Below, piece after piece: positions 15,276-59,039 of a stretch of DNA of 64,000 nucleotides. Origin of the DNA: an uncultured Thermoplasmatales archaeon (GTDB taxonomy: Archaea > Thermoplasmatota > E2 > DHVEG-1); NCBI GenBank assembly GCA_964648565.1, contig CAZYLG010000001.1, positions 12,315 to 76,314 of the forward strand, written 5' to 3'. Both the position numbers and the translations under genes were made by a program. Each line of letters opens with the position of its first letter. Position 1 is the first letter of the stretch. Below the pieces are notes generated by a model that worked only from the letters and a program-made list of their open reading frames with translations, ran no database searches and was not told where the DNA came from.

Positions 15276-15290
15276 TAAGATAATATAAAC
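15276..15290 (+). promoter_or_regulatory. conserved motif TAAGATAATATAAAC, promoter-like and T4-late-like, 8 nt upstream of the SD of the YegP-like gene
   Basis: One of three exact copies of TAAGATAATATAAA in the window. Confidence 0.5.
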
Positions 15291-15650: not shown

Positions 15651-15659
15651 AGGTTATTT

Positions 15660-15956: not shown

Positions 15957-15959
15957 AAT

Positions 15960-16946: not shown

Positions 16947-16961
16947 TTAAGATAATATAAA
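16947..16961 (+). promoter_or_regulatory. conserved motif TAAGATAATATAAAT (contains TATAAAT), 5 nt upstream of an AAGAGG SD
   Basis: Second exact copy of the 14-mer. Confidence 0.5.
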
Positions 16962-27000: not shown

Positions 27001-28853
27001 CAGATACAAATAATCGTTTTTCAGCTACAAATGTAGAAAATGCATTGCAAGAATTGGCTGGAGTGGATAGAGATGCTACCCATACGGTAAAGGGTAATTA
27101 TGATCTTATTCAAACTAATATCACTACCCTCACAGATTTACAAGAAGATGTACAGTACGCTCTTGATGCGAATACTGGTTCTTGGACTCAAGTGAAAGCA
27201 ACAAATAATGGTTGGAATATCGCAGATCTACGAACCGATGTAACAACAAATGCTGGAGATATAACCACTAATGCGGGAGATATCGCTCAAGAAATTATTG
27301 ATAGAGCTAACGCAGATCAACAGATTAGAGATGATTTGATTTCTACTGATAATGGTAAAGGAGCTTCATTAATCGGAGTAGAAGATTCAAACGGTGTGTT
27401 AACTGAAATTAATCTCGAAGCTGCTTTATATGAAATAATTGGATCAGGAAGAACAAATCAAACAATTAAAGATAATTGGGATCTTATTCAAACCAATATA
27501 AGTGATATTACAGATATTCAAAATGATGTTTCGAATATTAATACCGATTTATTAGAAATCGGTAAAATGAAAGACGGTACTGATGGATCTACTTGGGATT
27601 CATCAATGAATCTTAAGGATCATGAGGATCGATTAGATACCGCCGAAACAAATATTAGTACAAATGCTTCGGATATCGATACGAATGAAACAGATATCGC
27701 GAATACTCTTTCTTATGCTCAAGGGGTAAGAACAGACCTAACAACTGAAATTAGTAATAGACAGCAGGGCGATCAAGATATACGAAATGATTTAGCATCT
27801 ACTTCTGCTACGAAAGGTGCTTCAATGGTTGGAGTGAAAGATGAAAATGGATATTTTACCGAGAATACAGTAGAGGAAGTGTTATCTGAATTAGATGAAA
27901 AAATACAAACATTAGAAACAAGTCTTAACTGGAAAGAACCTGTTGATACTGTCGGTGACTTACCGACAACTGGTAATGATGATGGGGATGCTCGAACTGT
28001 ATTAGATGATGGTGATGGATTTGCAGCTCAATATGTATGGAATGGAACCTCATGGGTTAAAATTGCAGATATTAATTGGGGAACTGCATCGGATATTTCA
28101 TATACTAATACGACAACAGGAATGGATGCTACAAATGTACAATCTGCTATTGATGAAGTATATGAACGTTCACAAGATCCTTCTAAAGCAGAAGATGAAG
28201 TTGAAACTACTGATTATTCATCTAGTGGTGGTCGGTATTTTTATGATATTGATCATGAATTAAATACTCAAGACGTAACAGTTATACCGATTAGTAAAAC
28301 CGATGGTAGAGTTGTAGGAGTTGATGAAATAGAAGCTGTTGATTTTAACACAACACGAGTATGGGTAACTGATAACTCCGAGGGATTAAATTTTATAGTA
28401 TTCGGGGCTGTTCATAATTATTCAAAAACTGTAGGATCGTGGACACCTTCTAGTGGCACATATTATCATACAGTTAATCATAATCTTAATTCTCAACAAT
28501 TATTATTATCGGTATTCGACTTAAGTACTGGACATAGAGTAAATCTTGATGAAATACTATTTACTGATGATAATACGATTACACTTTGGACATCAGACAA
28601 CTTATTACAAGTCAATGTCTTTGTATTAAAACGAACATCAGATACAAAAGTAAAAGATATCGATAATTGGAATCCGGTGGCTGGCATGTATGAGGCATCC
28701 ATTAAAATGCCAGAAGATTATGATGCTGTTTATCAATTTATTGATCCTTCTACTGGAAGAATTGTTGGAGTTGATGATGTATGGTTTGATGGTGATTATC
28801 TTAAAGTACGAAGTTCAGATGATTCTCGTTTACGAATGGTTATCTTAAGATAA
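18006..28853 (+). CDS. giant mosaic tail-fibre/spike protein, 3615 aa. It has CBM-like (NPSFE...) jelly-roll domains, two DUF1565-type right-handed beta-helix segments, a coiled-coil/heptad region with a threefold GAS(L/M/T)(I/V)GV repeat, one WKEPV..DLP..GD.R.VL repeat, and three C-terminal ~60-aa repeats.
   Basis: GAGGAAACAGAG then ATG. CBM-like domains sit near nt 19500, 21400 and 25550. Beta-helix starts AFKTIGRAVEAI (~22760) and YPFKSFFAAKSQ (~25270). The heptad region spans ~26620..27920. The C-terminal repeats span ~28230..28850. Confidence 0.85.
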   Translation: MSITKKWSTGPLGNEYPDHSERGNPNTRGLTDNGIPGVEGYVEEDRVVASEDNRPLKNLTQNDQILENNLVDVASEVDYGVLKDKYDEFDLEIQELDYHQDPESDNPDDVVEITPLRIKSGSSFIDGQVTRTGNQQIIYFLRDDESYLFPDYDEHQGEVVIELFDKDYFGEYRPVYNTLAEELPSNFTDYEIKITNTDSSGSLEDRTSYYKVYRDWEDIVPYPPEEESQSQVLDFEYDANYGQDSEGVWLNPENDVINIKVSDVEVKKNIQVLDKHLRHNDFKLNPSTGNYEQILITDGIFFDNIRWDTSGEVVDIQDLVVDKDDNIFFIYDPYKLNLGEIDTLLLYKLSAESEQIDNIEITNILPTEKPMRLKLIDGYLFVLGEGALIKFLDIYVSSTVNEFITPLTGDTTQTFKDVVIWDDTLWIASNNTLYYTSWEDFKTSPRHATFTTIDFASEIESQGHADTLDYIQNIFTLKGNYVVDSSLIHDIDNIIDNPSFEEGGINNPPTSWDVTSSSGSATLKVASGNAQIGQMRAVLQPAINDNEISVYQDKKFDFETSQDYTFSIYLKASTDTDVDIILSELDDSDAIVDSTTQSETVTGNDTWIRFSVTHTVTDSTSVKLRVEVKKTDVNVLQFDGGQLELGASVSQFVHGYNYLFITFRKKDDTTNPPFAIIDERKKYDIQYTPNLYGKIQSINDILDRNHNEIYFIDDSHIYSMQLLNDVDHYDRINISNLSSQLFGDDFRERVKQLYSIEELNSRIYIGGTILNKNISFTIDDGETHTVELLHANEVTGGGSYLDFLTIIGDYNFIQASENSPARVEFSRTEELYESQNPTPTEGFYSAEQIYAFGIRIDDIEYLIKVDSAPQEFNSPWSIEDVYNKIVTHTTSEGYDVFSWHFDNSTLIVDGLYSIGMNKPTRYLRGNIKKIFKQENAEEKDVNERHLYIARENTIIRSKYDPNIKKVGDSYPSEPVVRGYVDSMDDLPSDPDNNDVYYVEGWGYFKWIESTSEWIDTHYFHRWDISDSNYELREFTKIANETITFNDTTHNRLFVDIPVSSGCELLTGSVRLKINDETEYGFIEGKDYFINYENKTVIRNDGKNLLSDSKLEHIDDPSTQWNIWSTHDDPEFNSLTNEFNEIFAEFYTVNQITEYVNFHQVVVPNTLSVGETFTFSIYVKSNIEFTSGNIRLAERINSGTNKNDLSLFYDDFIDGSTQTFFISNSELDIGKWHRIEVTHTIQNTESDCLRVEFYSALNHQIFVKNAQLEENPFATPYVPEEGFSRIDPQDTVYCDFIEYKVLTEGSDYTFNTDDNRRICLLNPIGSNSELYFDYEYERIFNPYKYGNSLPTFDVRYDNRDDYFLYENSGRIWAINQILALLSLDESLNVSYKYHYPRIDKIKIRNIPDKYGNFLYIVKGDFDVENPYSPGDLGNQRQVYVDGVYDVSIDDVNNEDNDVLYELNVVDLNFNKNDIYDRRIFIDSDTSPYFSISLQNETLAYFPFVKDFISTNGIHPLNQIDASRIVSIVKNYSIQQNEEVGAWGTDYQMSLRYKDGYPENIGPSLSTFVDNDNGKDDDPAYDGTSQLLAFKTIGRAVEAIRDEGAQPNIVIISTSTITEDVEIDLTQEILIKAKTYTRWRGNLQNRSKITFQGIIFENFNFYAIADLDFYHCNLEDSSINNYYPLNISLYNCKILDATNTFLRISSQLFPTPFAHPYMRNITRDDGVPGSPESVATSDGEAIHPEDLQYNFELFGDPIGNYTMYRCLMNGLSDDLIHYDLTNTQDWISNFDVEKCTIVNSKLLFKTSKPGQSILFNECIVWNNGEIRSGEKKYFDSRSNIEFLNSFIDFSVDPELVPASELNFNPIGGIFGRETCQFSGPNKDPGFISTDEETEDYHLRSIAKGFLTDSVCIGKASDGKDIGCYDEIRERVDLDVPKKFKSNFAYIAESIHYPIVVNSEKITFTVEFKPTETYNNTGILFDTRSDTDDDDYIVLLYNNNTGEKRANLTPDSQAEPSDPYTFKIIVANKYKKYAVISPLQILSDADYQQWHKISFTVNYEKAFNQKPAFDEKDKYQNIITFYHNNQLAIESFIVNDLNRDEKGELILNELAQGNEIVEGFKEEETTNAWNYNDISYYITIGGAFDQTQLLSGYYSELRIDNKFTNRKELTYWNDKELPFIDPTNYIDQSTFVKTIDSRILNEFWSLKNEYGIGAKGNTFEDKTRKRFTYLNSELVWALMEPTMNYLENSDFTENEFAHIITDVPPRLNSNISKYMFISTTGSRIATDNAQSTINDDAYGISVRFFTDEDDYANGMNFYSAKELVDHINDEIFRTDGGTPVNGNTYIRCRLRKDGKIEFYTKDWQATSIKIQFENSGDHREIGFNNDNPDLIDWEYMGELQGDEANVYFIDTLRSDSYVPDGSPAYPFKSFFAAKSQLEVGYVLYIANGETNPGSTYADFGITTGGGGGTVLFTGRQITKTKDTNFEILGLDGDTVGRHEVWNEFDPLYTRLSNRSWGILKNRALGEDETITIYFEKITQTGGAPIDFVPGEYYTFSMYVYSEDEVSSEKIKFIKRENGTETEFFFDDIEKIYGSWMKLTKTTSFSSDLQADIGIIVKRDIEFYIDAVQLERSKFSTPYIKERNDNHGVIEISRALVQKQRGIIFFRFKPIINFDTEDEIVLLEAVKYQIDEAGDLVYKEGSDVPLVDWNRGFRISYYYDPTIEKGIITFKTDSLVINDTSTHKFYIVESLWDYWHSVAIYYDYPTNRFIYYFDHFKYDTESGAAVQPFASNFYIGRDVPKDYTSSGSFEWTDSIGYDETKNRPSANILVKDVIITNYPISDRELSNWKNIQEFYKESSYIHLLDYYQDQVLQRISNLELVSENTIEISNKIDSFEQQINQFEENLNNNVNTQLPQIESDIATNAANITTNADDIDVLELNVSNLTAEQSNQDGRITQNESDIDYNYNLILAETQARIDADDIIVNRLISNNIGDGASTVGIADTNNRFSATNVENALQELAGVDRDATHTVKGNYDLIQTNITTLTDLQEDVQYALDANTGSWTQVKATNNGWNIADLRTDVTTNAGDITTNAGDIAQEIIDRANADQQIRDDLISTDNGKGASLIGVEDSNGVLTEINLEAALYEIIGSGRTNQTIKDNWDLIQTNISDITDIQNDVSNINTDLLEIGKMKDGTDGSTWDSSMNLKDHEDRLDTAETNISTNASDIDTNETDIANTLSYAQGVRTDLTTEISNRQQGDQDIRNDLASTSATKGASMVGVKDENGYFTENTVEEVLSELDEKIQTLETSLNWKEPVDTVGDLPTTGNDDGDARTVLDDGDGFAAQYVWNGTSWVKIADINWGTASDISYTNTTTGMDATNVQSAIDEVYERSQDPSKAEDEVETTDYSSSGGRYFYDIDHELNTQDVTVIPISKTDGRVVGVDEIEAVDFNTTRVWVTDNSEGLNFIVFGAVHNYSKTVGSWTPSSGTYYHTVNHNLNSQQLLLSVFDLSTGHRVNLDEILFTDDNTITLWTSDNLLQVNVFVLKRTSDTKVKDIDNWNPVAGMYEASIKMPEDYDAVYQFIDPSTGRIVGVDDVWFDGDYLKVRSSDDSRLRMVILR

Positions 28854-43706: not shown

Positions 43707-46700
43707 ATGGCATCATTTAAATTATTATGGGAAAATAACCCAGACACTCCAATAGATTCTAATCGATTATCAAGTTCTATAGATTATTATTCCAAACAAT
43801 CTATTTTATACTTTGATAGTAATGAATTGGAAAGTGGAGAAGATATATTAAAATTACGAAGTAATGTAAAAGTAAATATAGAAATCCCTACTACATTATC
43901 TGCATGGGATTTTAATAATTCATTAGTTTCATATAATAGTAAATTTGCTCCAGAAGACGCAGAAAATATTATTTTTAGAGATGAATATAATAATTCTCCA
44001 GGGAGTGTTGCGATTGATGCAGCAATCGATAATGTTCTAACAAATTCAGGATTCGAGAGTGGTTTAACTGATTGGACATTTACTGATGATAATGGTTCTA
44101 TTGTTTCAGTATCCACGTCTGAATATTATCCGTCAAATCTAAGTACTCAATCTGCAGAAATAACTGTTAATTCAAGTGGAACACTTTGTGAATTATCTCG
44201 TCAATCCGATACAAGTACAGTAGTTGGAAACTATTCACTATCATTTTATTATAAAACAAGTACAGATTTATATTTACAAATTAAAACATTTAAAAATGGT
44301 AATGATAATTATTGGAATGGCAATAATTGGGTATTTTCCCAGGCATACTTTACGATGCCTTATACAGATAATCAATGGCATAGATATGAAATGCAAGAAA
44401 TCGATGTTAGTCTTATTAATTATGTAGAAATCATTTTGTATTCTGATTATCCTAATTCGACTCATTATGTTGATTCATTTCTTTTAGAATTAAAAGATTA
44501 TTGTTCATCATATTATCCAACATCTATTGGTGATTCTCTTCTCACGTACAGTAGAGATGTTATTATTCTTCGAGAAGGTTTGATTGATTTTACATTTTAT
44601 CCTAAAATAAAAGAGGATGTAACATTATTTCTAGTAAAAAGCGTAAGCGGCAACGATTTATTAAAACTTGTATTCGATGAAAGTGAAAATAAATTTGTTT
44701 TTACGATTTATGATAAAAACACATCACAAGAATTGACGTATGATATAATTTTTAATTTTGATAATATTATTGATGAATGGACAAGAGTAATAATTAGTTG
44801 GAGTGAAACACTAAAAAAAGTATACGTAAATATCGGAACATATTTACGAGAATTTGATTTACCTACTGGGTATTTTGCTGAAGATCAAAGCAATATTAGT
44901 AAAGTATATATAGGAAGTGATTCTGACGGTACTCATCTTGCTAAATCATTATTTGAATTCCTGAAATTTGACATAGAATATAAAAATTTAGATGAAATTA
45001 ATAATTTACTTCTTTATCCTTCTGAAATTAATGATAGTGATTTTAAAGTATTCGAAAATGAAAATAAATCATTAATTATTAACCATCATTTATTAGATAC
45101 TGGCACAAATTTTGCTAATAATAGAACATATTATATTTGGGTTGCAGACAATAATGACGGTGATAGTTGTGAGCTGTTGGTGTCATTGAGCGATCATAAT
45201 CCTTCTGGATATATTTGGTATCGATCACGGATTATCGGTGGATTTAGAACTGATTCAAGTAGAAATATTATAAAAAATAGTGTATGGGATATTAGTACTA
45301 AATTAACTACTAATTTACATATTGACAGATTATTAATTGGAGGAACCCGAACCCTGACAATTGATGATGTTGGAGCTGGTGAAGATCCTACTCCAGTAGA
45401 AATTAGTACTACCCCGTATGGTGATGTAAATAATGCTATTTATAATATTGACTCCTATTTCACGCGACATGTATACGGAAGAAATATTACAGATGGAAAT
45501 TTTTTAGATATTGATAATGAAAATGGATCTATAACAATAGATGATATTCATATAGATGGTCATATAATGAATTCAAATGATACAGATTTTGAGCTGTATG
45601 CTTCTGGTTCGAATACTCTTTCTTTACATTCAGATGAAATTATAATAACATCTGAGGGAACAGACGTAAAAATTGATGATATACGAATATTGAATAATAC
45701 GATATATGTGGCAAATGGGAATGATTTAATTATTAATTCAAATATTGATGATGCAACAAGTGATAATAATATTCAGGTGATTGCAAATGATGTGATAGTA
45801 GAACCTAAAAACGATTTTGTTGTCGATGCTGATAATCAGATACAATTAACTGCAGAAAATTCTATATTGATAACATCAAATACGAATAATATAGTTACGT
45901 CTTCAAACAATTTTACCGTATCGACTGATAATATTATTACTTTAGACGATATAAAAATTGATGCTAATAAAATTTATCGTGACGGAACATTAGAAGTAAT
46001 TAATATAGAATCAACTGGTAACATTAATATTAATTCATTAGACGAGAATGTAACAATAGAAGAAATCGATTTTAATGATAATAAAATTTTTCAAACAAAT
46101 GATGTTCATCGTTATATATCATTTTATGATGATGGAAGTCCTGTGGGGTTTTCAGATTCTGCAGAAAATATTGATATCGCAGCTGGTAATAAAGTAGTTA
46201 TTGATTCTCCTGTATTCCATGTTAAATCACAGGAAGTGTGGTTTGAGGCTGATTTATCTGATTTCATACGATTAGATTATATAAAAATTAATGGAAGTCA
46301 GTTGTATACTGAAACTGGATACCCTTTGAGTATATTATCACCAGAGAATATAACAATAAATTCTGGTTCTACACTGTCACTTCAAGGACCGCCTGTACAG
46401 ATTGAAAATATAACATTAACCGATAAAACACTTGAACCATTAGACGGGGCATGGACATTAGGGAATATTATACATCAAACAAATATTAAAGGTAATGGGT
46501 TTGATGTATATAGTGAAACTGGATACGTAGATTTTAGTTCAGATATACGGGTAAGTAGTGGTAGTGGTTCTATTTTAGCGAATGCTTCATCTGCTACAGA
46601 ATTTGAAACTGCTGTAGATTTAGATTTTGCTTCTACTGATACTACTCAAATGGATACATATAATCAAGTATATACATTAACAGGAACCGAAGGTACAATT

Positions 46701-47540
46701 GATGTTGATGTGACACATACTCATGATGGTCGTTATTATACTGAAACAGAGGCAGATAATAGATTCGTAAATATGAATGGTGATACGATGACTGATGATT
46801 TAAATTTTACTATTACAGCTTCTGCGACATCAAAAGGGATAACATGGACCGGATTAACTGACGAGCATAAAATTTATGTCGAGGAGACTGCGGGAGGTGA
46901 AGAAACATCATTAATTATAGAAAGTGGAAATAACGCAGGTACTGATAAAACTATTTTTAGAAATAGAGACGGAGTAGCTCCTATTGATGTATTAACATTA
47001 AACAATAATTTAGTTCATTCTCATAAAGATGTTCAAATTGGTGATTCTGGAACATTAGAATATAACCAGTCAAACCCAGTTGGAACAGAGATATTAGGGT
47101 ATAATGGTTATTTTTATGCAAACAGGGTATATAATGCTGTATGGCAAGATTTAGCCGAATGTTGGGAAAAGAATCCTCAATATACATTTGGATATAATAT
47201 TGTTGTAGTACAAACTGAACATGGAGTAAGACCATCAATGAAACGCGCAGAGAAAACAACAGTAGGAGTAATTTCTGATACATATGGTTATATTTTGAAT
47301 GCAGATAAACTTTTTGAACATGATTTAAATAAATCAGAATCTGTTCCTGTAGCGATTGCTGGTAGAGCGATTGTAGCTTATGTAGGAGATATAGCGATTG
47401 GAGATGAGGTCGTATCATATAAAAATGGTAATTCAATTAAAGCGAATATATTTGAAAAAATATGTAAGCGAGATAGGATCCTTGGAAAGGTTGATAAAAT
47501 CTTGTCTTCAAATCTGATTAAAATAAAAGTTTATGGATAA
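43707..47540 (+). CDS. tail-fibre protein, 1277 aa. It shares the N-terminal module LLWENNPDTP..SSS and has a CBM-like jelly-roll domain and a distinct C-terminal domain.
   Basis: The CBM-like domain NVLTNSGFESGLTDWTF...YVDSFLLEL sits at ~44030..44500. RIIGGFRTDSSRNIIKNSVWDIS is conserved. HTHDGRYYTETEADNRF lies near 46720. Confidence 0.8.
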   Translation: MASFKLLWENNPDTPIDSNRLSSSIDYYSKQSILYFDSNELESGEDILKLRSNVKVNIEIPTTLSAWDFNNSLVSYNSKFAPEDAENIIFRDEYNNSPGSVAIDAAIDNVLTNSGFESGLTDWTFTDDNGSIVSVSTSEYYPSNLSTQSAEITVNSSGTLCELSRQSDTSTVVGNYSLSFYYKTSTDLYLQIKTFKNGNDNYWNGNNWVFSQAYFTMPYTDNQWHRYEMQEIDVSLINYVEIILYSDYPNSTHYVDSFLLELKDYCSSYYPTSIGDSLLTYSRDVIILREGLIDFTFYPKIKEDVTLFLVKSVSGNDLLKLVFDESENKFVFTIYDKNTSQELTYDIIFNFDNIIDEWTRVIISWSETLKKVYVNIGTYLREFDLPTGYFAEDQSNISKVYIGSDSDGTHLAKSLFEFLKFDIEYKNLDEINNLLLYPSEINDSDFKVFENENKSLIINHHLLDTGTNFANNRTYYIWVADNNDGDSCELLVSLSDHNPSGYIWYRSRIIGGFRTDSSRNIIKNSVWDISTKLTTNLHIDRLLIGGTRTLTIDDVGAGEDPTPVEISTTPYGDVNNAIYNIDSYFTRHVYGRNITDGNFLDIDNENGSITIDDIHIDGHIMNSNDTDFELYASGSNTLSLHSDEIIITSEGTDVKIDDIRILNNTIYVANGNDLIINSNIDDATSDNNIQVIANDVIVEPKNDFVVDADNQIQLTAENSILITSNTNNIVTSSNNFTVSTDNIITLDDIKIDANKIYRDGTLEVINIESTGNININSLDENVTIEEIDFNDNKIFQTNDVHRYISFYDDGSPVGFSDSAENIDIAAGNKVVIDSPVFHVKSQEVWFEADLSDFIRLDYIKINGSQLYTETGYPLSILSPENITINSGSTLSLQGPPVQIENITLTDKTLEPLDGAWTLGNIIHQTNIKGNGFDVYSETGYVDFSSDIRVSSGSGSILANASSATEFETAVDLDFASTDTTQMDTYNQVYTLTGTEGTIDVDVTHTHDGRYYTETEADNRFVNMNGDTMTDDLNFTITASATSKGITWTGLTDEHKIYVEETAGGEETSLIIESGNNAGTDKTIFRNRDGVAPIDVLTLNNNLVHSHKDVQIGDSGTLEYNQSNPVGTEILGYNGYFYANRVYNAVWQDLAECWEKNPQYTFGYNIVVVQTEHGVRPSMKRAEKTTVGVISDTYGYILNADKLFEHDLNKSESVPVAIAGRAIVAYVGDIAIGDEVVSYKNGNSIKANIFEKICKRDRILGKVDKILSSNLIKIKVYG

Positions 47541-49223: not shown

Positions 49224-49238
49224 TAAGATAATATAAAT
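49224..49238 (+). promoter_or_regulatory. third exact copy of TAAGATAATATAAAT (contains TATAAATA), abutting the ATG of the 1692-aa gene
   Basis: No SD lies between the motif and ATG 49239. Confidence 0.45.
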
Positions 49239-52200
49239 ATGATTGAAAATATTGTTATTTCTAAAATCGGTTCAGAAACATCAGACCCAGACAGAAAAAC
49301 GTACTCATCTACTCATTCTTGGGAACAAAATGGATCCAATCTTATCGTATATGTTAATAATTCGATTAAAGTAAAAGATGAAGATTATATCGTTGTTGAT
49401 GAATTTACTATTGAATTTTCTAATTCTGTTCATACATCAGATAAAATACAATTTGTTATTACTTCTGTTACTGATCCTTCAGAGTTTTTCACGTATGAAG
49501 ATCGAATCCACCAATTAGATAGGGTGGAGAAGAAACAGGAAAATAAAGTTCAAACAACAATTAATAAACGTCCAGAAGAAGAAATTTTTAATACATATCA
49601 AATTATATCTACAGAACAAATATGGGCTACCGAAGTAGCTGATACTCCTCTTCAAGCTCAACAAGATGGAGTAGCTAGATTGCGAGATAAATTTGAATTG
49701 ACAGAAGACGTCACAGTATCGGATCATAAAGGATGGTTTGCTTCTTCTACCGGATCACTAGATGGTAGAATAACAGATTGGATTCCTCCAAGTTTTGGAC
49801 AGGGATTTACTGTTCGTTTATTTGATGATGATGATACAGAAATACCGTCGTCTGATGTGATTAAATGGAAATGGGATTACGCGGCTGGATACCTTACTAT
49901 TCAAAACTCAGATCACGATTATCAACTACCTTTTCATATTTATGGATATGAATATATAGGTAAATTTGCGTCTGATAGACTTGTAACTTGGAAAGAACCT
50001 GTATTTAGTGAAGATTTTTTACCGTTATATCATAATGAAGATGGTGATATCCGGTTGGTATTAACTGAAAATCGATTTATGCGTTTCGATTCTATAGCAA
50101 ATATGTGGAGAAATTTAAATTATGGCTCTGATATTTTACGAGATCCAGTAGTTGCTGTCGGTGATTTACCGACAGAAAATAATCAGAGAGGTGATTTACG
50201 ATTAGTATTAGAAGATAGTGATTTATATTTATGGGATGATACTATTGGTGAAAGTGGAGATTGGATAATTTTAACAGGGCAATCTTTTTCTCCAGAAAAC
50301 TATTATAAACGTGATGTTTTAGACGGATTTTTAGATGACAAATCAGACATTGGACACGTTCATGATAGTTTATATTATAGAAAACCTGAAGTCGATGATT
50401 TAGTCCGATGGAGACCCTCTCGACTTTCATTTAATGATTTACCTCCGTATACAGAGAATATAGACGGTGATGTTATTCTAACTCGTGATACAAATACCAT
50501 TTATCGCTGGGTAACTGAAAACCCCAATACTGGTCAGGGGCATTGGGAACCTATAGTTCAATCTAATTTTACATGGAAAGGTCCAGTTGATCAATTGAAT
50601 GATTTACCTCCAATAGGAAATAATCCTGGTGATGTTCGTTTGGTAAGAGATGAAGAAATAGCCTATTGGTGGGACGGAACTGAATGGAAAGAATTAAAAT
50701 CAACTATTCAAGAACATGATCATGATGATGTATATATATTAAAAACAAATTTTTATTGGAAACCACCTGTTACATCTTTTGGAGATTTACCATCAGTTGA
50801 TAATAATGATGGTGATGTACGACTTACATTAGATGATAATTTAATTTATCGTTGGGATTCCTACAACTATAAATGGACGTTAATCTCATATCGTTCATCG
50901 TGGCGCTCACCAGTAGAAACATTAACGGAATTACCAAGTGATAATGATGATAATGATGTTATTTTTGTTAAAGAAACTTCTCAAGTATATTATTGGGATG
51001 AAGATGAATCTATATGGAATTCTATTGAACTAAAGGATCATAATCACGATGATGTATATTACACGCAATCAGAGATAAATGACTTATTTGATACAAGTTC
51101 TGGTCATGATCATGATGGAGTAAATTCTCGTCAGATCAATTATAATGATTTATTAAATATACCTTATTTCTATTGGAAAAATCCAGTAGTATATGATACT
51201 GATCTGCCTGCTTCTGGGAATACACCAGGAGATGCAAGAATTGTATTAAACAACAAATCAATTCATGTTTGGACCGGTACTGAGTGGTTTCTTATTGTAT
51301 CTGGTGAATTTGTTTTAGAACATGATCATGATAGTAGATACTATACAGAAACTGAAATGGATACAATCATTAATAATACAATTACCTCATTAACTGCTCA
51401 AATTGCTACAAAAGCAAATGTTATCCATGATCATGATGATATATATTATCGAAAAGATTTTATTAATACTCATATTAATGATTTTGAACAACATGAACAT
51501 GATGGTATTGATTCTAAAAGAATAAATTTTCATGATTTAGAAAATATTCCAGATTTTAGTATTAATCATGATCATGATCATCGATATTATACACAAACAG
51601 AACTTCAAACTCCCGGACAGTCATCAGTACATTTCGAAAATATTACTAATATGCCTGCTTTTACTAGTAATTGGAAAAGTCCTGTTCAAGAATATAGTGA
51701 TCTTCCAATGACTGGTAATGAAGAAGGTGATTTACGTATTGTATTGGATACAAGAGAGATTTATGAATGGGATGGTAGTGGATGGAATTACGTAGGTGTA
51801 TGGGATGTGTCTACTACATCGAACTGGAAAGATCCTGTTAACACAACTGGAGATTTACCTTTAGTTGATAATATTAATGGTGATGTACGATTAGTATTAT
51901 CAACAAATACATTTTATCGATGGAACGCTGTTCAAGAAGAATGGATAATTATTCAAGCTGCAGGAGGTGGTGGATCAGAAAACTTTTTAGAAGAAAGCAC
52001 GATTCTTGTATTCAAAAATGGAATAAATTTACAAAAAGATGAAGAGTGGGAAATATCGGGCACATCATCGATAAATTTATTAATTGATACAGAAGATCAA
52101 GACAAAATCGCTATTATTGTTTATCATAGTAATAGTAATTTTTATCGAAGATATGACTTCACATCATTCGCGTTACAGCAGTCATTTGAGATTGGAACAG

Positions 52201-54317
52201 CAAGAGTTTTCCGACAAGAAACAGTATTATCCGAAGGGCAAACTACTGTAACATTGGCATCTCCATATACAATAGGAAGTGGTGATTTGTTGATATGGTG
52301 GAATGGTTTATTACAGAAAAGAGGAGATGATTATACAGAAACTTCTCAAACGACAATAGAATTAATTGAGGAGGCAGAAGAAGATGATGTTATTATAGCA
52401 TTGATTTTTGATTCAGCCGGTGCAAATACCATTTTTACGAAAGAAGAACAGGTGGCTACACAGGATCAACAAGAATTTGAATTAGAATATACGTATAGGG
52501 TAGGACAAAATCATTTATTAGTATATCTTAATGGACAATTACAGGAGGTTGATAGTGATTATGTTGAAATTGATGTAAATACAATTGAGTTATTAGATCC
52601 TCTTGATGCTGGAGAAAAACTTACATTTATGGCATTTAATGCTGATTTTTCATCTGGTGAGGATGAGATATCTACCGCGTGCGATTTACCAATAGGAACC
52701 CCACCAGATGGTTATTGGTCAGATGGATTGTTTCCTTGGAATTCAAATACACTTACATGTGAAGCATTAGATGATATTAATGAAGCCTTAGTTGGTTTAA
52801 CGACAGACAAACCATCAACACTCGATGGAGTTGAATTAATATGTTCTGCTACGTTAAAAGAGGGTTGGATATCAGACGGTAATGTAAACACAGAAGATGG
52901 TGTTGGAATTGAGAAAAATTATCTTATACACAATGCTGTATTTGATGTATATACTCCTGATAACTCACTATTAGATGCAGATGAAGGTATGATAAAATTA
53001 CTTGTGAATGGATCAGAAGTTGATTCGTTTCATTTAGGTAATGCATTTATAGAATCAGATAGAGCAAACGATGATGGCCAATCTGCCCTTCGTTACGGAC
53101 AGATGGCATACGGAGCATTGGCAAATGTTGGTCAATCTTCAACTCATGGAGGTATACGTGATTCAGACAATGGATATATAACAGTTGTGTTTGTAACAAA
53201 ATATCAAGAATTTACAAATTGGCAATATGGAAAAATTAAAATAAATGTCGATAATTCTTTATTACAAAGTGGATATAATGAAATTCAACTTCGCCATCAA
53301 TTATCAGCAAATATAAGAAATTCAACAATATTCAAAGTGTTTTATGATGATTCTATGAATGCACCAATCGTTGATACTGATATTACTATTATAGAAGATG
53401 AATTAAATTCAAATAAATACCTATCTGGAATCAGATATTATTCTATTGGTGATATTTTTGACATATCATTTAGTATTGATAATATATTTGATTCCACATA
53501 TGTACAAGATATTATTAGTTATACATTTCCTGGTACTGATAATATCGAACTGGATGTGGATGACGGTGATTTGAGTGGTGTATCACTTATACCCCATAAA
53601 GATGATATCGTGGACTATAATGGTTTAGTAGTAATAAATGAAGTTAATGAATATTCAATTGATGCTAAAGTTGGAGTTAATTTATATTATCCATTCGGTA
53701 CGAATGGCGAATTTATTTCAGATTCATATAATATATTAATTAACACTCATCAAATTTCTTCATCGAATTTAGAAGAAAATTTTTATGACGAATATTATCG
53801 TTTACCTATAGGAAATTATGATACGATACCTAATCCAATTACTAATAATTGGAATAGTTCACAATTATTGTCTGACGGTAATGCATTGATATTCGATGGT
53901 TCTTTACAATATGCAAATATAGAATTAACTGATTATTTACCCAATCAAACTGTTGACTACACTGGATTTTCTTTAGATCAGATGTATCTGCGAGCATTTC
54001 GTCATAATGATGCCCCTCACAACAGCGGTAAAATTCTTATCGATGGAATTAGTAAAAACGACCTTCTAACCAACAAGATAATAATAGACATCAAATTACC
54101 AACTCAGACTGGTTGGTTAAATGCGAATACTCGATATGATGTGGCTTCATTTGATGGAGAGGACGGTGATGGATGTTTGGTTGATGTTGAAGATGATTTT
54201 ATTTATTATACATCGGGGGTATATTCGACGGCGTATAGTAGTAAAATGATTATAGTACGTTTAACATTACAATCAGATTCACCGTCGGTGAATAAAATTA
54301 AGTTGTTTTGGGATTAA
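49239..54317 (+). CDS. giant fibre/neck-like protein, 1692 aa. Eight copies of a ~40-aa W(K)xPV...DLP...GD.R.VL...W repeat alternate with eight HDHD..YY-type His motifs.
   Basis: W-repeat starts near 49989, 50139, 50573, 50756, 50901, 51174, 51672 and 51825. HxH motifs sit near 50357, 50716, 51040, 51100, 51322, 51427, 51492 and 51567. The N-terminal region shares PFH(I/L)YGY(E/R)YIG with the 347-aa protein. No SD was found. Confidence 0.8.
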   Translation: MIENIVISKIGSETSDPDRKTYSSTHSWEQNGSNLIVYVNNSIKVKDEDYIVVDEFTIEFSNSVHTSDKIQFVITSVTDPSEFFTYEDRIHQLDRVEKKQENKVQTTINKRPEEEIFNTYQIISTEQIWATEVADTPLQAQQDGVARLRDKFELTEDVTVSDHKGWFASSTGSLDGRITDWIPPSFGQGFTVRLFDDDDTEIPSSDVIKWKWDYAAGYLTIQNSDHDYQLPFHIYGYEYIGKFASDRLVTWKEPVFSEDFLPLYHNEDGDIRLVLTENRFMRFDSIANMWRNLNYGSDILRDPVVAVGDLPTENNQRGDLRLVLEDSDLYLWDDTIGESGDWIILTGQSFSPENYYKRDVLDGFLDDKSDIGHVHDSLYYRKPEVDDLVRWRPSRLSFNDLPPYTENIDGDVILTRDTNTIYRWVTENPNTGQGHWEPIVQSNFTWKGPVDQLNDLPPIGNNPGDVRLVRDEEIAYWWDGTEWKELKSTIQEHDHDDVYILKTNFYWKPPVTSFGDLPSVDNNDGDVRLTLDDNLIYRWDSYNYKWTLISYRSSWRSPVETLTELPSDNDDNDVIFVKETSQVYYWDEDESIWNSIELKDHNHDDVYYTQSEINDLFDTSSGHDHDGVNSRQINYNDLLNIPYFYWKNPVVYDTDLPASGNTPGDARIVLNNKSIHVWTGTEWFLIVSGEFVLEHDHDSRYYTETEMDTIINNTITSLTAQIATKANVIHDHDDIYYRKDFINTHINDFEQHEHDGIDSKRINFHDLENIPDFSINHDHDHRYYTQTELQTPGQSSVHFENITNMPAFTSNWKSPVQEYSDLPMTGNEEGDLRIVLDTREIYEWDGSGWNYVGVWDVSTTSNWKDPVNTTGDLPLVDNINGDVRLVLSTNTFYRWNAVQEEWIIIQAAGGGGSENFLEESTILVFKNGINLQKDEEWEISGTSSINLLIDTEDQDKIAIIVYHSNSNFYRRYDFTSFALQQSFEIGTARVFRQETVLSEGQTTVTLASPYTIGSGDLLIWWNGLLQKRGDDYTETSQTTIELIEEAEEDDVIIALIFDSAGANTIFTKEEQVATQDQQEFELEYTYRVGQNHLLVYLNGQLQEVDSDYVEIDVNTIELLDPLDAGEKLTFMAFNADFSSGEDEISTACDLPIGTPPDGYWSDGLFPWNSNTLTCEALDDINEALVGLTTDKPSTLDGVELICSATLKEGWISDGNVNTEDGVGIEKNYLIHNAVFDVYTPDNSLLDADEGMIKLLVNGSEVDSFHLGNAFIESDRANDDGQSALRYGQMAYGALANVGQSSTHGGIRDSDNGYITVVFVTKYQEFTNWQYGKIKINVDNSLLQSGYNEIQLRHQLSANIRNSTIFKVFYDDSMNAPIVDTDITIIEDELNSNKYLSGIRYYSIGDIFDISFSIDNIFDSTYVQDIISYTFPGTDNIELDVDDGDLSGVSLIPHKDDIVDYNGLVVINEVNEYSIDAKVGVNLYYPFGTNGEFISDSYNILINTHQISSSNLEENFYDEYYRLPIGNYDTIPNPITNNWNSSQLLSDGNALIFDGSLQYANIELTDYLPNQTVDYTGFSLDQMYLRAFRHNDAPHNSGKILIDGISKNDLLTNKIIIDIKLPTQTGWLNANTRYDVASFDGEDGDGCLVDVEDDFIYYTSGVYSTAYSSKMIIVRLTLQSDSPSVNKIKLFWD

Positions 54318-55184: not shown

Positions 55185-55410
55185 AGGACTACAATCAATA
55201 CTTGAAGCTCAACAAAAACAAAGAGATAAGTTACAGGATTCAGAATCAGATGGTCCAGATAATAATGAAGTTATTAGTATTCTTAAATTAATATTTGAAT
55301 ATATGAAAAAAAATGATTCATATATTATGGATGTTGTTAATTCATTAGCAGATAGTCATAAGGAAGTTAAAAATCAATTAGAAGAAATCAATAAAAAATT
55401 GGATAAATAA
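55174..55410 (+). CDS. hypothetical protein, 78 aa
   Basis: Overlapping coupled ORF. Confidence 0.4.
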   Translation: MAIEGLQSILEAQQKQRDKLQDSESDGPDNNEVISILKLIFEYMKKNDSYIMDVVNSLADSHKEVKNQLEEINKKLDK

Positions 55411-56453
55411 TGAATAAAGAAGATTTGTTGTATAAAAATTACAAATCAAGAGAATTTACTTCAGATGATAAAAAATGGTATGAGGAAAAAACATCCGATC
55501 CTCAACATATCCATTTTGGTAATGTTCTTCTTGATGAAATTCCAGAATCACCCCCAGCTATTACCACAGACGTAGTAGAAATTATCAGTGATCTTACTCT
55601 AACTAAAGATTTTACCACAGATGATAATAAGGCATGGTATGCATGTTCTACTCAAGGAATATTGAGTACTCGTTTATACGATTTTATACAACCAGATAAA
55701 AATAAATCGAATAAATATAATATTAAAATTTTTGATAATACAGGTATCCAATTATTAGTTGATGACATTCTATGGGACTTTGATTATCAGAATGGAATAC
55801 TTACGTTTGAAACGGATCCAACATTAGAATACGAAGCTCCTTTCCATTTATACGGGTATCGTTATATTGGTGAAAAAGCATCGAAAGAATCATTAGGTGC
55901 TCAAACATTAGATGAAGCATACAACGGTGGATCAGAAATTAATACAGACAATGGTCCCGTTATTATTACACCATCGGCTGGATCATCAGCATTAAAAATA
56001 ACATCAGTAGATTATGTACCTACAGAAGATTTAACCGGTGATGAATTAATTAACTATAAGGGTATTTTATACATCTATGACACATTTAGAAGTACATGGA
56101 TTAGTCTCGATCGTCAAACTGTCAGTTTCGGTGTTAAGAGAGCAGATGGAATATTCTTGAATTTAAGTAATTTTTCTTCGAATATGAGTGGATGGCCCGC
56201 AATACGTGATGGAATGATTTTAGGTATCACAGCCCAAGCTGCAGGGGGGTATCCCAATAAAAGAATTAAACTATTCAAAAAAGATACCCCAGGACCACTT
56301 TTTGAATTCGATTTAGATGATTTATTTTATGCGAATGGAGATATTGGTATCCCATTCGAGAAAAATGATTTAATTAAGATATTCGTGTCATCAGAATTTA
56401 GCACAGTATATAATCTTATAGTAAATATAGAAATAGGATGGAGAGCTTCTTAA
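55410..56453 (+). CDS. structural protein, 347 aa, sharing a ~80-aa domain with the N-terminus of the 1692-aa protein
   Basis: KAWYACSTQG...DFDYQNGILTFETD...PFHLYGYRYIG aligns with KGWFASSTGS...KWDYAAGYLTIQNS...PFHIYGYEYIG. Confidence 0.55.
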   Translation: MNKEDLLYKNYKSREFTSDDKKWYEEKTSDPQHIHFGNVLLDEIPESPPAITTDVVEIISDLTLTKDFTTDDNKAWYACSTQGILSTRLYDFIQPDKNKSNKYNIKIFDNTGIQLLVDDILWDFDYQNGILTFETDPTLEYEAPFHLYGYRYIGEKASKESLGAQTLDEAYNGGSEINTDNGPVIITPSAGSSALKITSVDYVPTEDLTGDELINYKGILYIYDTFRSTWISLDRQTVSFGVKRADGIFLNLSNFSSNMSGWPAIRDGMILGITAQAAGGYPNKRIKLFKKDTPGPLFEFDLDDLFYANGDIGIPFEKNDLIKIFVSSEFSTVYNLIVNIEIGWRAS

Positions 56454-56815
56454 ATGTTCAAATAATGCAATAATGTTTTTGCTTTTAAAGTAGCATAATC
56501 AGGGTATTGTTTCACATATTCACGCGCATCGAGAAAATAAAGAGCTGCTGAACTTTTAGATTTAATGTAAATCATACTCCACCAAAATCTTTCTTCATCA
56601 GACATCTCGGAATTAAATGATAAAAGTACACTTCCATTTTCACATGGAAAATCAAGTGATCCCCCAATAAAGTAACCACCAGCTTTATCGAAAAAAATGT
56701 CTTTTAATACATCTTTATGCTCACCATTGCTACGTGTCTGCATATCATAAGTATGTGTATCTTGCGCGACAGGGGTTTCATCTTTCTGAACAAAAATTTT
56801 CTTCAACAAATTCAA
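56450..56815 (-). CDS. hypothetical protein, 121 aa. The start is uncertain: the track start overlaps the CCA gene stop by 38 nt, and an internal Met at residue 25 (about 56743) would remove the overlap.
   Basis: Its stop overlaps the stop of the convergent + gene by sharing TTAA. Confidence 0.35.
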   Translation of the reverse strand: MNLLKKIFVQKDETPVAQDTHTYDMQTRSNGEHKDVLKDIFFDKAGGYFIGGSLDFPCENGSVLLSFNSEMSDEERFWWSMIYIKSKSSAALYFLDAREYVKQYPDYATLKAKTLLHYLNI

Positions 56816-58115
56816 GAACTTTCTCCTTATCTGTTAACTCATCTTCTAATTGAAGAATACGCACAGAATCTAAAATTTTTTTAAAAATAGGACCAGGTTT
56901 AAATCCTAATGTAATTAAATCATTGCCATCGATAATTGGATCTGGTAATAATGTTTCCGGGGTGTCAAATTCTTTTTGTTTTTCTCTAATAAATGTCAAC
57001 CATCCAAAAGAATCTTTGCTTTTACCAACACAATCGGCAGCACAAAGAGTCAGTAACTCTTCAATCCATTCCTCGGCAAGCAACATCCTGACAGTAGATT
57101 TTTTCATCTTTTTCACGTCATAGGGTTTCATATGATTTTTTACAAGAAACACTACCTTATCGATAAATTTATTAGAGAACTTAAAACGAGTCAAAATGTC
57201 TTCAGTAATTTCAGCTCCAACATGAGCATGCCGTTTTGAAGTGATGACTCCATCAATGATTTTAGTAGTTGAAGGTTTACCGACATCATGCAGAAGAGCA
57301 GCCCAAATTAGTTCTGTAGAACTATCTTTAGGAAGAGCTTCCATAACCTGAATTGTATGTTCAGAAACCCAAATTTCGGGATGAAATTTTTTATTTTGGC
57401 GACAGGTAAACATTACTTCGATTTCAGCAAGTACGACAAATAAAATGCCTGATTCTCTCAATAATGTAAGAGCTCGTCGAGGCTGGTGATACGAAAATAA
57501 TTTCACTAATTCATCTCTAATTCGTTCTTTTGATACAGTCATGATTTCAAGTGAATTATCACAAATAGCTTTCCATGTTTCTTCTTCAATAGAAAAACCC
57601 AATTTTACAGCAAAACGGATTGCTCTTAGAAGACGAAGTTTATCCTCTTTAATTCTTTCTTCGGGGTTGCCAATAAATCTAATTCTTCTTTCAAGTAAAT
57701 CTTCAATACCGTTTACATAATCTAATGTTTCATCTGTCATAGGATCATAAAATAAACCATTGATGGTAAAATCTCTCCTTTGAGCATCTTTTTCAGCTGT
57801 AGAAAAAGAAATAGAAGAAGGCCGTCTTCCATCTTCATATTCGATATCTGTACGGAATGTCGATACCTCAAAAGAATATCCATTCTCGATGACGTTAATA
57901 ACTCCAAAAGCCTTTCCAATGGGAACCGTTTTTTTGAAAATATGCTCAATTTCTGATGGTTTAGCTGATGTAGCAATATCAATATCAGAAGGATGCGTAC
58001 CGAATTTCATGTCTCTTACAGCACCACCAGCAATATAAGCAGTATGGCCATAATCTTTAAGAGTGGAAATAATAGATGTAGCAATCTGTAGTTCAGTCAT
58101 ATATATATTATACAT
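56778..58115 (-). CDS. cca: CCA-adding tRNA nucleotidyltransferase with a C-terminal HD domain, 445 aa
   Basis: Pol-beta head-domain motifs GGAVRD...DIDIAT and RRDFTING. HD motif LLHDVGKP. Confidence 0.8.
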   Translation of the reverse strand: MYNIYMTELQIATSIISTLKDYGHTAYIAGGAVRDMKFGTHPSDIDIATSAKPSEIEHIFKKTVPIGKAFGVINVIENGYSFEVSTFRTDIEYEDGRRPSSISFSTAEKDAQRRDFTINGLFYDPMTDETLDYVNGIEDLLERRIRFIGNPEERIKEDKLRLLRAIRFAVKLGFSIEEETWKAICDNSLEIMTVSKERIRDELVKLFSYHQPRRALTLLRESGILFVVLAEIEVMFTCRQNKKFHPEIWVSEHTIQVMEALPKDSSTELIWAALLHDVGKPSTTKIIDGVITSKRHAHVGAEITEDILTRFKFSNKFIDKVVFLVKNHMKPYDVKKMKKSTVRMLLAEEWIEELLTLCAADCVGKSKDSFGWLTFIREKQKEFDTPETLLPDPIIDGNDLITLGFKPGPIFKKILDSVRILQLEDELTDKEKVLEFVEENFCSER

Positions 58116-58136
58116 CTTTTATGACAACTGCTAAAA

Positions 58137-59039
58137 TTATCCGAATTTTTTTGTAGTATCAAAAGTAGAATGTAGTGAGGCAACCAATTCTTTTTGTTTC
58201 TCATTCAATTGCTTTGGGTATTCAATATGCACCCGTATAATCATATCTCCTCGAGTATTTTCGGCGATAGGAAATCCTTTATTTTTTATTACAAATGATT
58301 GTCCATCTTTGATACCTTCTGGTATAGAAGTTTTGATGTTCTCACCATCTATATTTTTAATAAAAATTGTATCACCAAGAAGAGCTTGTGTAAAATTAAT
58401 TGTTATTGTACATAGTAAATTATATCCATCGTATTGAAAAAATGGATGAGCTTTTAGCCGTGGATATATTTTTATATCTCCTGCCTTTCCACCGTTCATT
58501 CCATGATGGCCTTCACCTTTTAGTACAATTGGTTTATTAGGATTAAAGCCTTTTTGGATGTTTAATTTAAATGTCCTCTTTTTTTCTACTATAACTCCGT
58601 GTTCATTCTCTCTTCGGGTTATCGGAATATTCATTGATTTACCAGTAAATACATCAATAAAATCCAACCGAACTTCAATTTTAATATCTTTACCTTTTCT
58701 TTTTCTTTGAGATCCGCCCATTCCGAATGTGGTAAAAATATCTTCCCATGTGTCCGTTCCCCCTCCCCATGTGAATCTAACATTAAATCCGCCGAATGGA
58801 TCACCACCCGTAGAAGCAAAAGGATTACCACTTCCACTAAACGGGTTGGGGTTATCATATTCTTTTCGTTTTTGTTCATCAGATAGAATAGAGTACGCTT
58901 CTTGAATTTCTTTAAATTTAGTGTCATCACCCTGAGATGTATCTGGATGATATTGTTTTGAGAGTTTTCTATACGCTTTTTTTATTTCATCTTGTGAGGC
59001 ATTTTTATCTACTCCTAATATTTTATAATAATCTTTCAT
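58137..59039 (-). CDS. DnaJ/CbpA-like J-domain co-chaperone, 300 aa: J domain, G/F-rich linker and C-terminal substrate-binding domains, with no CxxCxGxG zinc finger
   Basis: [33 protein letters not shown] contains the HPD motif. Followed by a Gly/Phe-rich region. Confidence 0.8.

Follow-up and report, generated by a model that had tools for sequence, protein, structure and literature searches.

A 1692-aa protein built from W-domains and His-x-His phage tail repeat units, probably a tail fibre from a huge phage with a contractile tail

The 64,000-nucleotide window treated here, that is, the whole stretch of DNA that was analysed, encodes a 1692-aa protein that probably serves a huge, contractile-tailed phage as a modular tail or side fibre. 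As a modular fibre it is well preserved and fairly ordinary, built from two widespread modules, the W-domain (or W-repeat) and a unit centred on a His-x-His (HxH) pair. Both modules are very common in fibres and poorly catalogued (>3000 representative proteins match a profile of the repeat region), and the analysis provides a first domain map (Table 1) for a conserved and previously unannotated family of ~1700-aa huge-phage proteins. The understanding of phage fibre function is unchanged by the result.

Table 1. Positions in the window of the 1692-aa gene, its modules and related features
Feature	Position	Strand	Evidence
Lone additional W-repeat in 3615-aa ORF (18006..28853)	27927..28064	+	hmmsearch E 2e-13, 44 bits
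14-mer TAAGATAATATAAA, possible phage promoter	49224..49237	+	Abuts ATG directly; no SD
ORF, 1692 aa, modular protein of tail-fibre type	49239..54317	+	ORF listing; 36 full-length homologues
First 'NG...DY' beta-domain repeat, aa 1-90	49239..49508	+	BLASTP to copies at aa 990-1140, E 1.8e-9 and 8.8e-4
phrog_9417 domain, aa 92-245, probable attachment domain	49512..49973	+	PHROG E 3.1e-11
W-repeats 1-2, aa 248-347 (248-296, 297-347)	49980..50279	+	HMM domains; pLDDT ~70-80; three-stranded sheet per unit
HxH unit 1, PTR type, aa 368-388, KSDIGHVHDSLYYRKPEVDDL	50340..50402	+	PTR-unit HMM 26 bits; H373, H375 and Y379 invariant in 34 homologues
W-repeats 3-4, aa 388-489 (388-442, 443-489)	50400..50705	+	HMM domains; phrog_3904 'tail fiber protein' match at aa 444-488
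HxH unit 2, aa 493-506, HDHDDVYILKTNFY	50715..50756	+	H493 and H495 each in 31/34 homologues
W-repeats 5-6, aa 504-599 (504-552, 553-599)	50748..51035	+	HMM domains
HxH units 3 (PTR type, aa 601) and 4 (GHxHDGxNS..I.Y.DL.NIP type, aa 623)	51039..51164	+	Unit 3, PTR-unit HMM 16 bits; His in 29-33/34 homologues
W-repeat 7, aa 643-689	51165..51305	+	HMM domain; pLDDT ~81-89, the most confident repeat
HxH units 5-8, aa 695, 730, 752, 777; also holds VHFENITNMP motif	51321..51656	+	PTR-unit HMM matches; seven of eight His columns in 30-34/34 homologues, H754 in 25/34
W-repeats 8-9, aa 809-908 (809-855, 860-908)	51663..51962	+	HMM domains
Three further 'NG...DY' beta-domain repeats, aa 915-1140	51981..52658	+	Internal BLASTP E 1.5e-11; phrog_25416
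C-terminal all-beta sandwich array, aa 1141-1692 (~550-558 aa)	52659..54314	+	AlphaFold2 pLDDT 89.2, pTM 0.71
347-aa ORF with phrog_9417 N-terminal domain	55410..56453	+	PHROG E 1.6e-12

The reading frame given in a preliminary description of this DNA was confirmed by the ORF listing. Its full-length homologues, all metagenomic, are 35–59% identical to it and keep its N-terminus, M1 included. The relatives' contigs, up to 732 kb in length (a contig of that size carries one homologue), are densely packed with small ORFs without known function and share the gene order of the window. When the whole protein was searched by tblastn against 50,697 phage records, only short pieces were matched, each at most 10% of the query, in four records from three phages, so that isolated phages in this collection lack the family. 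A Pfam scan of the entire protein gave zero matches at E ≤ 1, and scans of seven sub-fragments gave nothing meaningful at E ≤ 10, in both cases with the PTR family included. Sequence searches of the PDB with the protein, with profiles of the repeat region and the C-terminal region, and with a PTR-rich relative found no relevant chain; the W-repeat profile alone gave a relevant match, 7CHU.

Eight W-repeats had been counted in the preliminary description, which could not place them in a known family. HMM searches instead delimit nine, of ~45–50 aa each, two of them degenerate at the WKxPV start (RDPV and WRPSRL), and all nine positions are present in nearly all of 34 aligned homologues. The beta-rich character ascribed to the repeat agrees with a monomer model, in which it is predicted as a beta-rich ~45-aa domain with pLDDT 70–89, and the extra copy that had been noticed at ~27929 in the 3615-aa gene was recovered by the HMM, from whose training it had been left out. 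Pairs like repeats 8–9 are matched in many unrelated proteins.

As for its placement, Pfam scans indeed turned up no family for the W-repeat, but relatives can be named. A PHROG family of tail fibre proteins (phrog_3904) matches the 1692-aa protein at E 4.6e-8; the W-domain HMM finds seven domains in gp308, annotated as a tail fibre, of the Erwinia jumbo phage vB_EamM_Deimos-Minion; and Foldseek superimposes the repeat on the N-terminal domain of 7CHU (probability 1.00, rmsd 2.4 Å, 55 columns, 25% identity), a putative tailspike of Geobacillus virus E2, GVE2 (PMC11126041). The hmmsearch match of the W-repeat profile to 7CHU (E 0.04) is borderline by itself. This tailspike N-terminus is the only genuine PDB fold match. 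The W-domain has one solved example, in which it is unannotated as such, and no Pfam family.

The GVE2 tailspike (ORF18) shares with the W-repeat the ~45-aa pattern W..PV.....(L/I)......GD..(V).......Y.(W/Y).(G).W, at residues ~5–52 of 7CHU, and the predicted fold, but it has a single N-terminal copy, followed by a neck and a beta-helix, whereas the 1692-aa protein has nine copies and no beta-helix depolymerase. In gp308 and its Agricanvirus relatives, a bead module LPxxGxxGDxYxV....YVWDGxxW likewise occurs seven times and alternates with a trimer-forming spacer, in what is the tail fibre of a jumbo myophage. There, however, the spacer is a collagen triple helix (PF01391) with no HxH, the modules are without the leading WKxPV strand, and overall similarity to the 1692-aa protein is weak (tblastn E 0.02–0.5).

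Other matches of the repeat were set aside. Kelch and WD beta-propellers, the top Foldseek PDB matches of the repeat-region model, have rmsd >20 Å and probability ~0.1 and were rejected as repeat-on-repeat artefacts, as were weak profile matches to tectonin and alpha-fucosidase. Two W-only relatives (P0051 and P0057) have marginal matches to Pfam PFU with zero individually significant stretches, which we take to be scores summed over repeats. A protein-database search with the 47-column W-repeat profile gave nothing, because E-values scaled to 5.8 billion sequences ask too much of a profile of this length.

The HxH motifs between the W-domains stand at aa 373, 493, 601, 623, 695, 730, 752 and 777, eight in number as had been described; counted with overlaps, HxH occurs 9 times against 0.89 expected, a roughly tenfold excess, and none of 5000 shuffles has more than 6. 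Rather than alternating strictly with the W-repeats, as the preliminary description had it, they follow the order W W H W W H W W H H W H H H H W W. The H(D/N)HDxxYY block ascribed to every copy holds at six sites, which are of the type HxHDxxYY(T/R)(K/E)xE(I/V)D, but those at aa 623 and 752 belong to a separate unit, GHxHDG(V/I)(N/D)SxxIx(Y/F)xDLxNIP. It had been considered that the histidines might vary among homologues; they are conserved, 15 of the 16 columns being kept in 29–34 of 34 homologues and the remaining one, H754, in 25. The best-conserved residues of the unit are both histidines of the pair and the first tyrosine. In the monomer model the HxH segments have pLDDT <50, as would be expected if they needed partner chains; between units 5 and 6 a 23-residue helix is predicted (model residues 465–487), with pLDDT <50 elsewhere there.

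A profile of the repeat-region family matches 3104 representative proteins, many with 10–21 matched stretches on HxH units. Two of these (P0043 and P0045) pass Pfam PF12789, PTR (50.6 and 31.7 bits), exactly on their HxHDDxYYTExEVD stretches, and the former also bears a phage tail Collar domain; among proteins of this type there are PHROG matches to families of the 'long tail fiber protein distal subunit' (phrog 28169 and 21722). An HMM prepared from 111 PTR units scores the 1692-aa protein at 72.4 bits over five units, where the highest of 200 shuffled sequences reaches 6.0, and by hmmscan the protein itself falls below the PF12789 gathering score (27 bits). By sequence, then, the HxHDxxYY unit is the repeat of PF12789, 'Phage tail repeat like'. 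The preliminary description had allowed that its repeat might map to a Pfam family of described function; the HxHDxxYY unit does map to a Pfam family, but PF12789 comes without a described mechanism. The shared unit is xxKAxxxHxHDDRYYTExEVDxxL; PTR proteins and the PHROG families above differ in arrangement, with the unit in tandem at a 24–35-aa period and in up to 27 copies in other large proteins, whereas here it occurs singly or in small clusters between W-domains.

The region downstream of the W-repeats had been described as free of repeats. It holds three copies (aa 915–1140) of a second repeat of ~75 aa (L.VY.NG.LQ...DY.E...TIEL), a fourth lying at the N-terminus (aa 1–90). Within this region, aa 961–1130 match ORF152 of Bacillus phage 0305phi8-36, a virion structural protein (tblastn E 3e-9), and phrog_25416, 'virion structural protein', filed under head and packaging, matches part of the protein. 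The query gives no match to Pfam PF13799 (DUF4183) for this NG...DY domain; a homologue (P0036) has a precomputed one. The phrog_9417 domain that follows the first copy is 31% identical (E 2e-19) to that of the 347-aa protein encoded downstream. This suggests that the shorter gene encodes a second, short fibre probably mounted at the same attachment site, and the pairing of the two gene types recurs in a relative (L002).

The C-terminal array is probably the host-binding part. In structure searches of BFVD its matches are uncharacterised proteins from the jumbo phages CcrColossus (K4JVS8), Atu_ph07 and PTm1 (E 1e-29 to 1e-19), and in those of the PDB they are generic Ig-like adhesin arrays only. 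The jumbo phage proteins share the ~550-aa beta-sandwich array architecture (Foldseek TM up to 0.65) but are 600–1240 aa long and 14–18% identical. The gene has no DNA-level tandem repeats, so its repeats are old; recent repeat expansion was rejected on this ground and because the nine positions are orthologous across homologues.

In the same window are a baseplate wedge gene (phrog_219, E 2e-26), a gene for a 3055-aa tail fibre (phrog_24210, E 5e-131) and other giant ORFs, and the gene order around the 1692-aa ORF is kept in relative L002; these PHROG assignments and the synteny place the gene in a tail/baseplate module. We consider it quite unlikely that the protein is instead a surface fibre sited elsewhere (a head fibre, neck whisker or decoration adhesin), perhaps monomeric. 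Such a site would suit the likeness to ORF152 and phrog_25416, the C-terminal Ig-like arrays, which are similar to the stalks of adhesins and fold without partner chains, and a faint Phage_head_fibr match of a protein near the gene in L002; but the gene sits among those for the baseplate wedge and tail fibres, W-domains and PTR units occur in proteins whose annotations are tail fibre, long tail fibre distal subunit or tail collar, and the sole solved W-like domain comes from a trimeric tailspike. Matches annotated as tail fibre (phrog_3904 and gp308) are confined to the repeat modules.

The window also encodes DnaJ and a CCA-adding enzyme, which, together with the homologue on the 732-kb contig and a C-terminus like the Ig-like arrays of bacterial adhesins, could indicate a cellular (bacterial) surface adhesin borne by a chromosome or mobile element rather than a phage protein. 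This reading is highly improbable: DnaJ and tRNA nucleotidyltransferase have phage families too, the window has homing-endonuclease PHROG matches besides those to the baseplate wedge and tail fibres, the relatives carry dense small ORFs of unknown function, and it is phage proteins that match the C-terminus best in structure.

For the tail or side fibre that we prefer, we infer an architecture in which the first NG...DY domain and the phrog_9417 domain would dock on the baseplate or an adaptor. From there would extend a ~660-aa shaft whose nine independently folding ~45-aa W-domains, each a short strand, a turn and a three-stranded antiparallel sheet, would form beads, with the eight PTR-type HxH units and short helices placed between them. 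Three NG...DY domains would follow the shaft, and the 550-aa beta-sandwich array would lie distally and bind the host. The HxH units would most likely keep three chains in register, and the short helices after each could pack as three-helix segments. The C-terminal array and W-domains also fold confidently as a single chain in the models, which is compatible with a non-intertwined or monomeric beads-on-a-string protein.

In trimeric fibres and spikes such as T4 gp37, Bas63, P2 gpV and Sf14, HxH motifs form metal sites, and His pairs spaced i, i+2 about a three-fold axis make up established Fe or Zn sites (PMC11705849, PMC12609058, PMC11821841). By analogy, one His pair per chain might contribute to an axial six-histidine Fe2+ or Zn2+ site of the kind present in T4 gp37 and spike tips, and we give metal binding by the HxH units slightly less than an even chance. 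The T4 gp37 needle and the spike tips (P2 gpV, Mu gp45, Bas63 and Sf14) have in common with the 1692-aa protein conserved His-x-His pairs, with an octahedral metal proposed on the three-fold axis, but no sequence homology was detected and the flanks here are D..YY..E.D. In the gp37 needle the chain runs back on itself to build a six-stranded barrel; the 1692-aa protein gives no hint of this.

Of the metal-binding type of HxH proposed in the preliminary description, the conserved histidines are supported, and the tie to T4 gp37 and gp12 is not: searches of the PDB with the protein, the repeat-region profile and a PTR protein found no homology at E ≤ 1 to those metal sites or to any other solved metal-binding fibre (a match to an snRNP within that threshold is irrelevant). 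The units might instead be purely structural, through aromatic or hydrogen-bond packing, or serve as a pH sensor, with no metal. That the conserved D, YY and E(I/V)D tail differs from the GxHxH context of gp37, whose sites have no counterpart to the D and YY, agrees with such a role, as do the lack of homology to solved metal-binding fibres and of a solved PTR-repeat structure in the PDB searches; against it, both histidines of each pair are, with the first tyrosine, the best conserved of the unit, and pairs so spaced on a three-fold axis are a known recipe for Fe or Zn (PMC11705849, PMC12609058, PMC11821841). On balance we think a metal-free role somewhat unlikely. The conserved histidines fit trimer sites stapled by metal, of which T4 gp37 is an example, but do not prove them. 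If the HxH units bind Fe or Zn, there would be 8 sites per trimer, which bears on the idea of environmental trace metal in phage tails.

More speculative, and in our judgement rather doubtful, is that the PTR unit, alone or with the W-domain, defines a structurally unsolved shaft fold of axial six-histidine clamps and three-helix segments, with W triplets as lectin-like beads. If true, the shaft would be a multivalent, metal-loaded adhesin and, as metagenomes contain proteins of this sort by the thousand, phage particles would hold a large pool of protein-bound metal that has gone unrecognised.

At the start of the gene, the absence of a Shine–Dalgarno sequence (SD) and the presence of an adjoining conserved 14-mer, both pointed out previously, were borne out: the ATG has no GGAG-like SD ahead of it, and TAAGATAATATAAA has three exact copies in the window (four matches at ≤1 mismatch against 0.54 expected). 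A sigma-70 consensus scan gave no promoter match at this 14-mer. It is possibly a phage promoter, which at this gene would yield a leaderless or near-leaderless mRNA; the remaining two copies lie ~20–30 nt upstream of an SD and start codon.

Beside further giant ORFs of 3055, 3615, 1843, 1277 and 1162 aa, the window (31% G+C) encodes a 1692-aa protein that is unannotated, previously undescribed and built from recognisable phage-fibre modules. Metagenomes and assemblies supplied 36 homologues (35–59% identity, nearly all full length), none of which carries a name, on contigs reaching 732,019 bp. Among 50,697 deposited phage records there is no close whole-protein relative, and the matches are short pieces, none spanning more than 10% of the protein. 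We consider it likely that the protein is a modular phage tail or side fibre.

Features of the 1692-aa protein and its surroundings (nt, window coordinates; aa, residues of the 1692-aa protein)
Feature	Position	Strand	Evidence or remark
ORF, 1692 aa	49239..54317	+	ORF listing
W-repeats 1–9	aa 248-296, 297-347, 388-442, 443-489, 504-552, 553-599, 643-689, 809-855, 860-908		HMM
Extra W-repeat in 3615-aa ORF	27927..28064		HMM, E 2e-13, copy outside training set
HxH sites, eight	aa 373, 493, 601, 623, 695, 730, 752, 777		
Second repeat, ~75 aa, L.VY.NG.LQ...DY.E...TIEL, three copies	aa 915-1140 (51981..52658)	+	
Fourth copy, L.VY.NG.LQ...DY beta-domain	aa 1-90 (49239..49508)	+	
14-mer TAAGATAATATAAA, three exact copies	15276..15289, 16948..16961, 49224..49237	+	
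Tail fibre protein, 3055 aa	763..9930	+	phrog_24210, 9 stretches, E 5e-131
Baseplate wedge subunit	10826..13102	-	phrog_219, E 2e-26
HNH/homing endonuclease	13095..14696	-	phrog_3339, E 1e-127
1277-aa ORF	43707..47540	+	Mtd second domain, PF21916, E 3.6e-8
347-aa ORF	55410..56453	+	N-terminal 158 aa 31% identical (E 2e-19) to aa 90-245; phrog_9417
CCA-adding tRNA nucleotidyltransferase and DnaJ chaperone	56778..59039	-	adjoin fibre genes

The preliminary description saw eight tryptophan-rich W-repeats alternating with eight His-x-His (HxH) motifs. An HMM built from the W-repeats finds nine; the lower count is explained by two copies that begin with RDPV and WRPSRL in place of a literal WKxPV. 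The same HMM bears out the further copy reported in the 3615-aa gene. All nine positions are found in nearly all of 34 aligned homologues, so the architecture is fixed and predates the family. The eight HxH sites were all located; counted with overlaps, HxH occurs 9 times against 0.89 expected (maximum 6 in 5000 shuffles), always within aa 373-781. The two motifs are interspersed without strict alternation, in the order W W H W W H W W H H W H H H H W W. The H(D/N)HDxxYY block described for every site holds for six of the eight, as HxHDxxYY(T/R)(K/E)xE(I/V)D, but sites 623 and 752 form a separate unit, GHxHDG(V/I)(N/D)SxxIx(Y/F)xDLxNIP. No tandem repeats were found at the DNA level. Histidines not conserved in homologues would have refuted that description, but they are conserved: both are kept in 29–34 of 34 at seven sites, and the eighth site retains H752 in all 34 and H754 in 25. 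The D after HxH and the YY pair are largely conserved too.

Pfam has no model for the W-repeat, which had been thought unplaceable, yet it can be placed. A profile of 71 copies finds the N-terminus of PDB 7CHU (residues 5-52, E 0.04), with an alignment that we find convincing: RWLNPVATFADIATTYPNPQHGDTVMVTDDGENSGSVYRYENGQWNLT. In an AlphaFold2 model of aa 240-915 each W-repeat has pLDDT 70–89 and comprises a short strand, a turn and a three-stranded antiparallel sheet, for which Foldseek returns 7chu_A as the sole genuine match in the PDB (probability 1.00, rmsd 2.4 Å, 55 columns, 25% identity); propeller matches ranked above it have rmsd >20 Å and are artefacts. The protein in 7CHU, ORF18 of Geobacillus virus E2, is cited as that phage's putative tailspike (PMC11126041). 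The repeat also matches phrog_3904, ‘tail fiber protein’, and is present seven times in gp308 of the Erwinia jumbo phage Deimos-Minion, annotated as a tail fibre protein, where the modules, unlike ours, lack the first strand and have collagen triple-helix repeats in between. An assignment to PFU (PF09070) was rejected: the W-domain-only proteins P0051 and P0057 reach its gathering threshold of 26.2 bits (30.0 and 26.5) with zero individually significant stretches, and these scores probably arise by summation over W-repeats, not from true homology.

Run against 1.84 billion representative proteins, a repeat-region profile matched 3104 of them at E<=0.001, of which 596 reach E<=1e-10; in many of these proteins 10–21 stretches are matched, lying on HxH units. 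Of the 142 listed matches that the first homologue search had not already returned, 84 contain HxH units without W-domains, 31 W-domains without HxH units, and 8 two or more of each; since proteins with either module alone exist, the two are independent and mobile. Some of the matched proteins, P0043, P0045 and P0089 among them, are for the most part tandem arrays of the unit xxKAxxxHxHDDRYYTExEVDxxL, and the first two of those named pass PF12789 (PTR, ‘Phage tail repeat like’) exactly on these stretches; P0043 also bears a phage tail Collar domain. The 1692-aa protein itself falls under the Pfam threshold for PF12789, and an HMM of 111 PTR units gives it 72.4 bits over five units against at most 6.0 for 200 shuffles, from which the HxHDxxYY block is a PTR unit. 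Judged by these matches the unit is widespread, and PHROG matches of HxH-unit proteins include ‘long tail fiber protein distal subunit’ families.

Residues 92-245 match phrog_9417, as does the 347-aa ORF, which is probably a second, short fibre with the same attachment domain. Sharing of one attachment domain by two fibres is frequent in phages. The region after the W-repeats and HxH sites, previously taken to be repeat-free, carries three overlooked ~75-aa repeats; aa 961-1130 are similar to ORF152, a virion structural protein of Bacillus phage 0305phi8-36, and through homologue P0036 the repeat may be related to DUF4183. For the last 558 aa a confident model was obtained, all beta (pLDDT 89.2, pTM 0.71). 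Its PDB matches are limited to tandem Ig-like adhesin arrays of a generic kind; among predicted viral structures it matches uncharacterised proteins of CcrColossus, Atu_ph07 and PTm1, all jumbo phages (E 1e-29 to 1e-19).

In such a fibre the N-terminal part would dock, W-domain beads with HxH/PTR units and short helices between them would form the shaft, and the distal beta-sandwich array would touch the host. In trimeric fibres and spikes (the T4 gp37 needle, Bas63 fibres, P2/Mu/Sf14 spike tips) HxH pairs on the three-fold axis hold Fe or Zn (PMC11705849, PMC12609058, PMC11821841). The conserved His pairs may bind metal likewise, at a little under even chances, and would then keep three chains in register. 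Sequence searches detected neither homology to the T4 gp37 and gp12 metal sites nor a solved structure bearing the PTR/HxH repeat. The AlphaFold2 monomer model gives the HxH segments pLDDT <50; it places short helices after the motifs and one of 23 residues between units 5 and 6. The Erwinia fibres have collagen segments where our protein has HxH units, which supports trimer formation as the spacer's job; that the protein trimerises and binds metal and a receptor is what we infer. Confident folding of the W-domains and C-terminus as a single chain leaves room for a non-intertwined, even monomeric fibre, and it is conceivable, if improbable, that the protein is a head or neck fibre instead.

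The tail or side fibre that we favour lies in what, to judge from its genes, is the tail-fibre region of a huge contractile-tailed phage. The endonuclease gene lies directly upstream of the baseplate wedge gene, with an 8-nt overlap. The 1277-aa ORF may be a receptor-binding protein of diversity-generating-retroelement type. DNA 14-mers such as AAGAAGGTAGAGCT recur 5–7 times in the window, possibly within the 3055-aa or another giant ORF. No tRNA genes were found in the 64 kb. Local gene order is retained in a relative's locus (JGI 3300082197, contig Ga0673036_0000002) carrying homologue P0033 (39% identity), with an Mtd_N protein upstream and, two genes downstream, a ~350-aa gene (15350..16426 of that locus) in the relative position of the 347-aa ORF. 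That 732,019-bp contig, densely packed with small ORFs of unknown function, would be among the largest phage genomes known if it were a complete phage genome.

The annotated start is supported by conservation of M1 and the rest of the N-terminus among the homologues. As described earlier, there is no SD before the ATG, many neighbouring genes having GGAG-type sites, and an exact copy of a promoter-like 14-mer directly adjoins it. The other two copies of TAAGATAATATAAA are followed ~20–30 nt downstream by an SD and start codon. A sigma-70 scan did not flag the 14-mer, a candidate phage-specific promoter; as a promoter element it would make the mRNA leaderless or nearly so.
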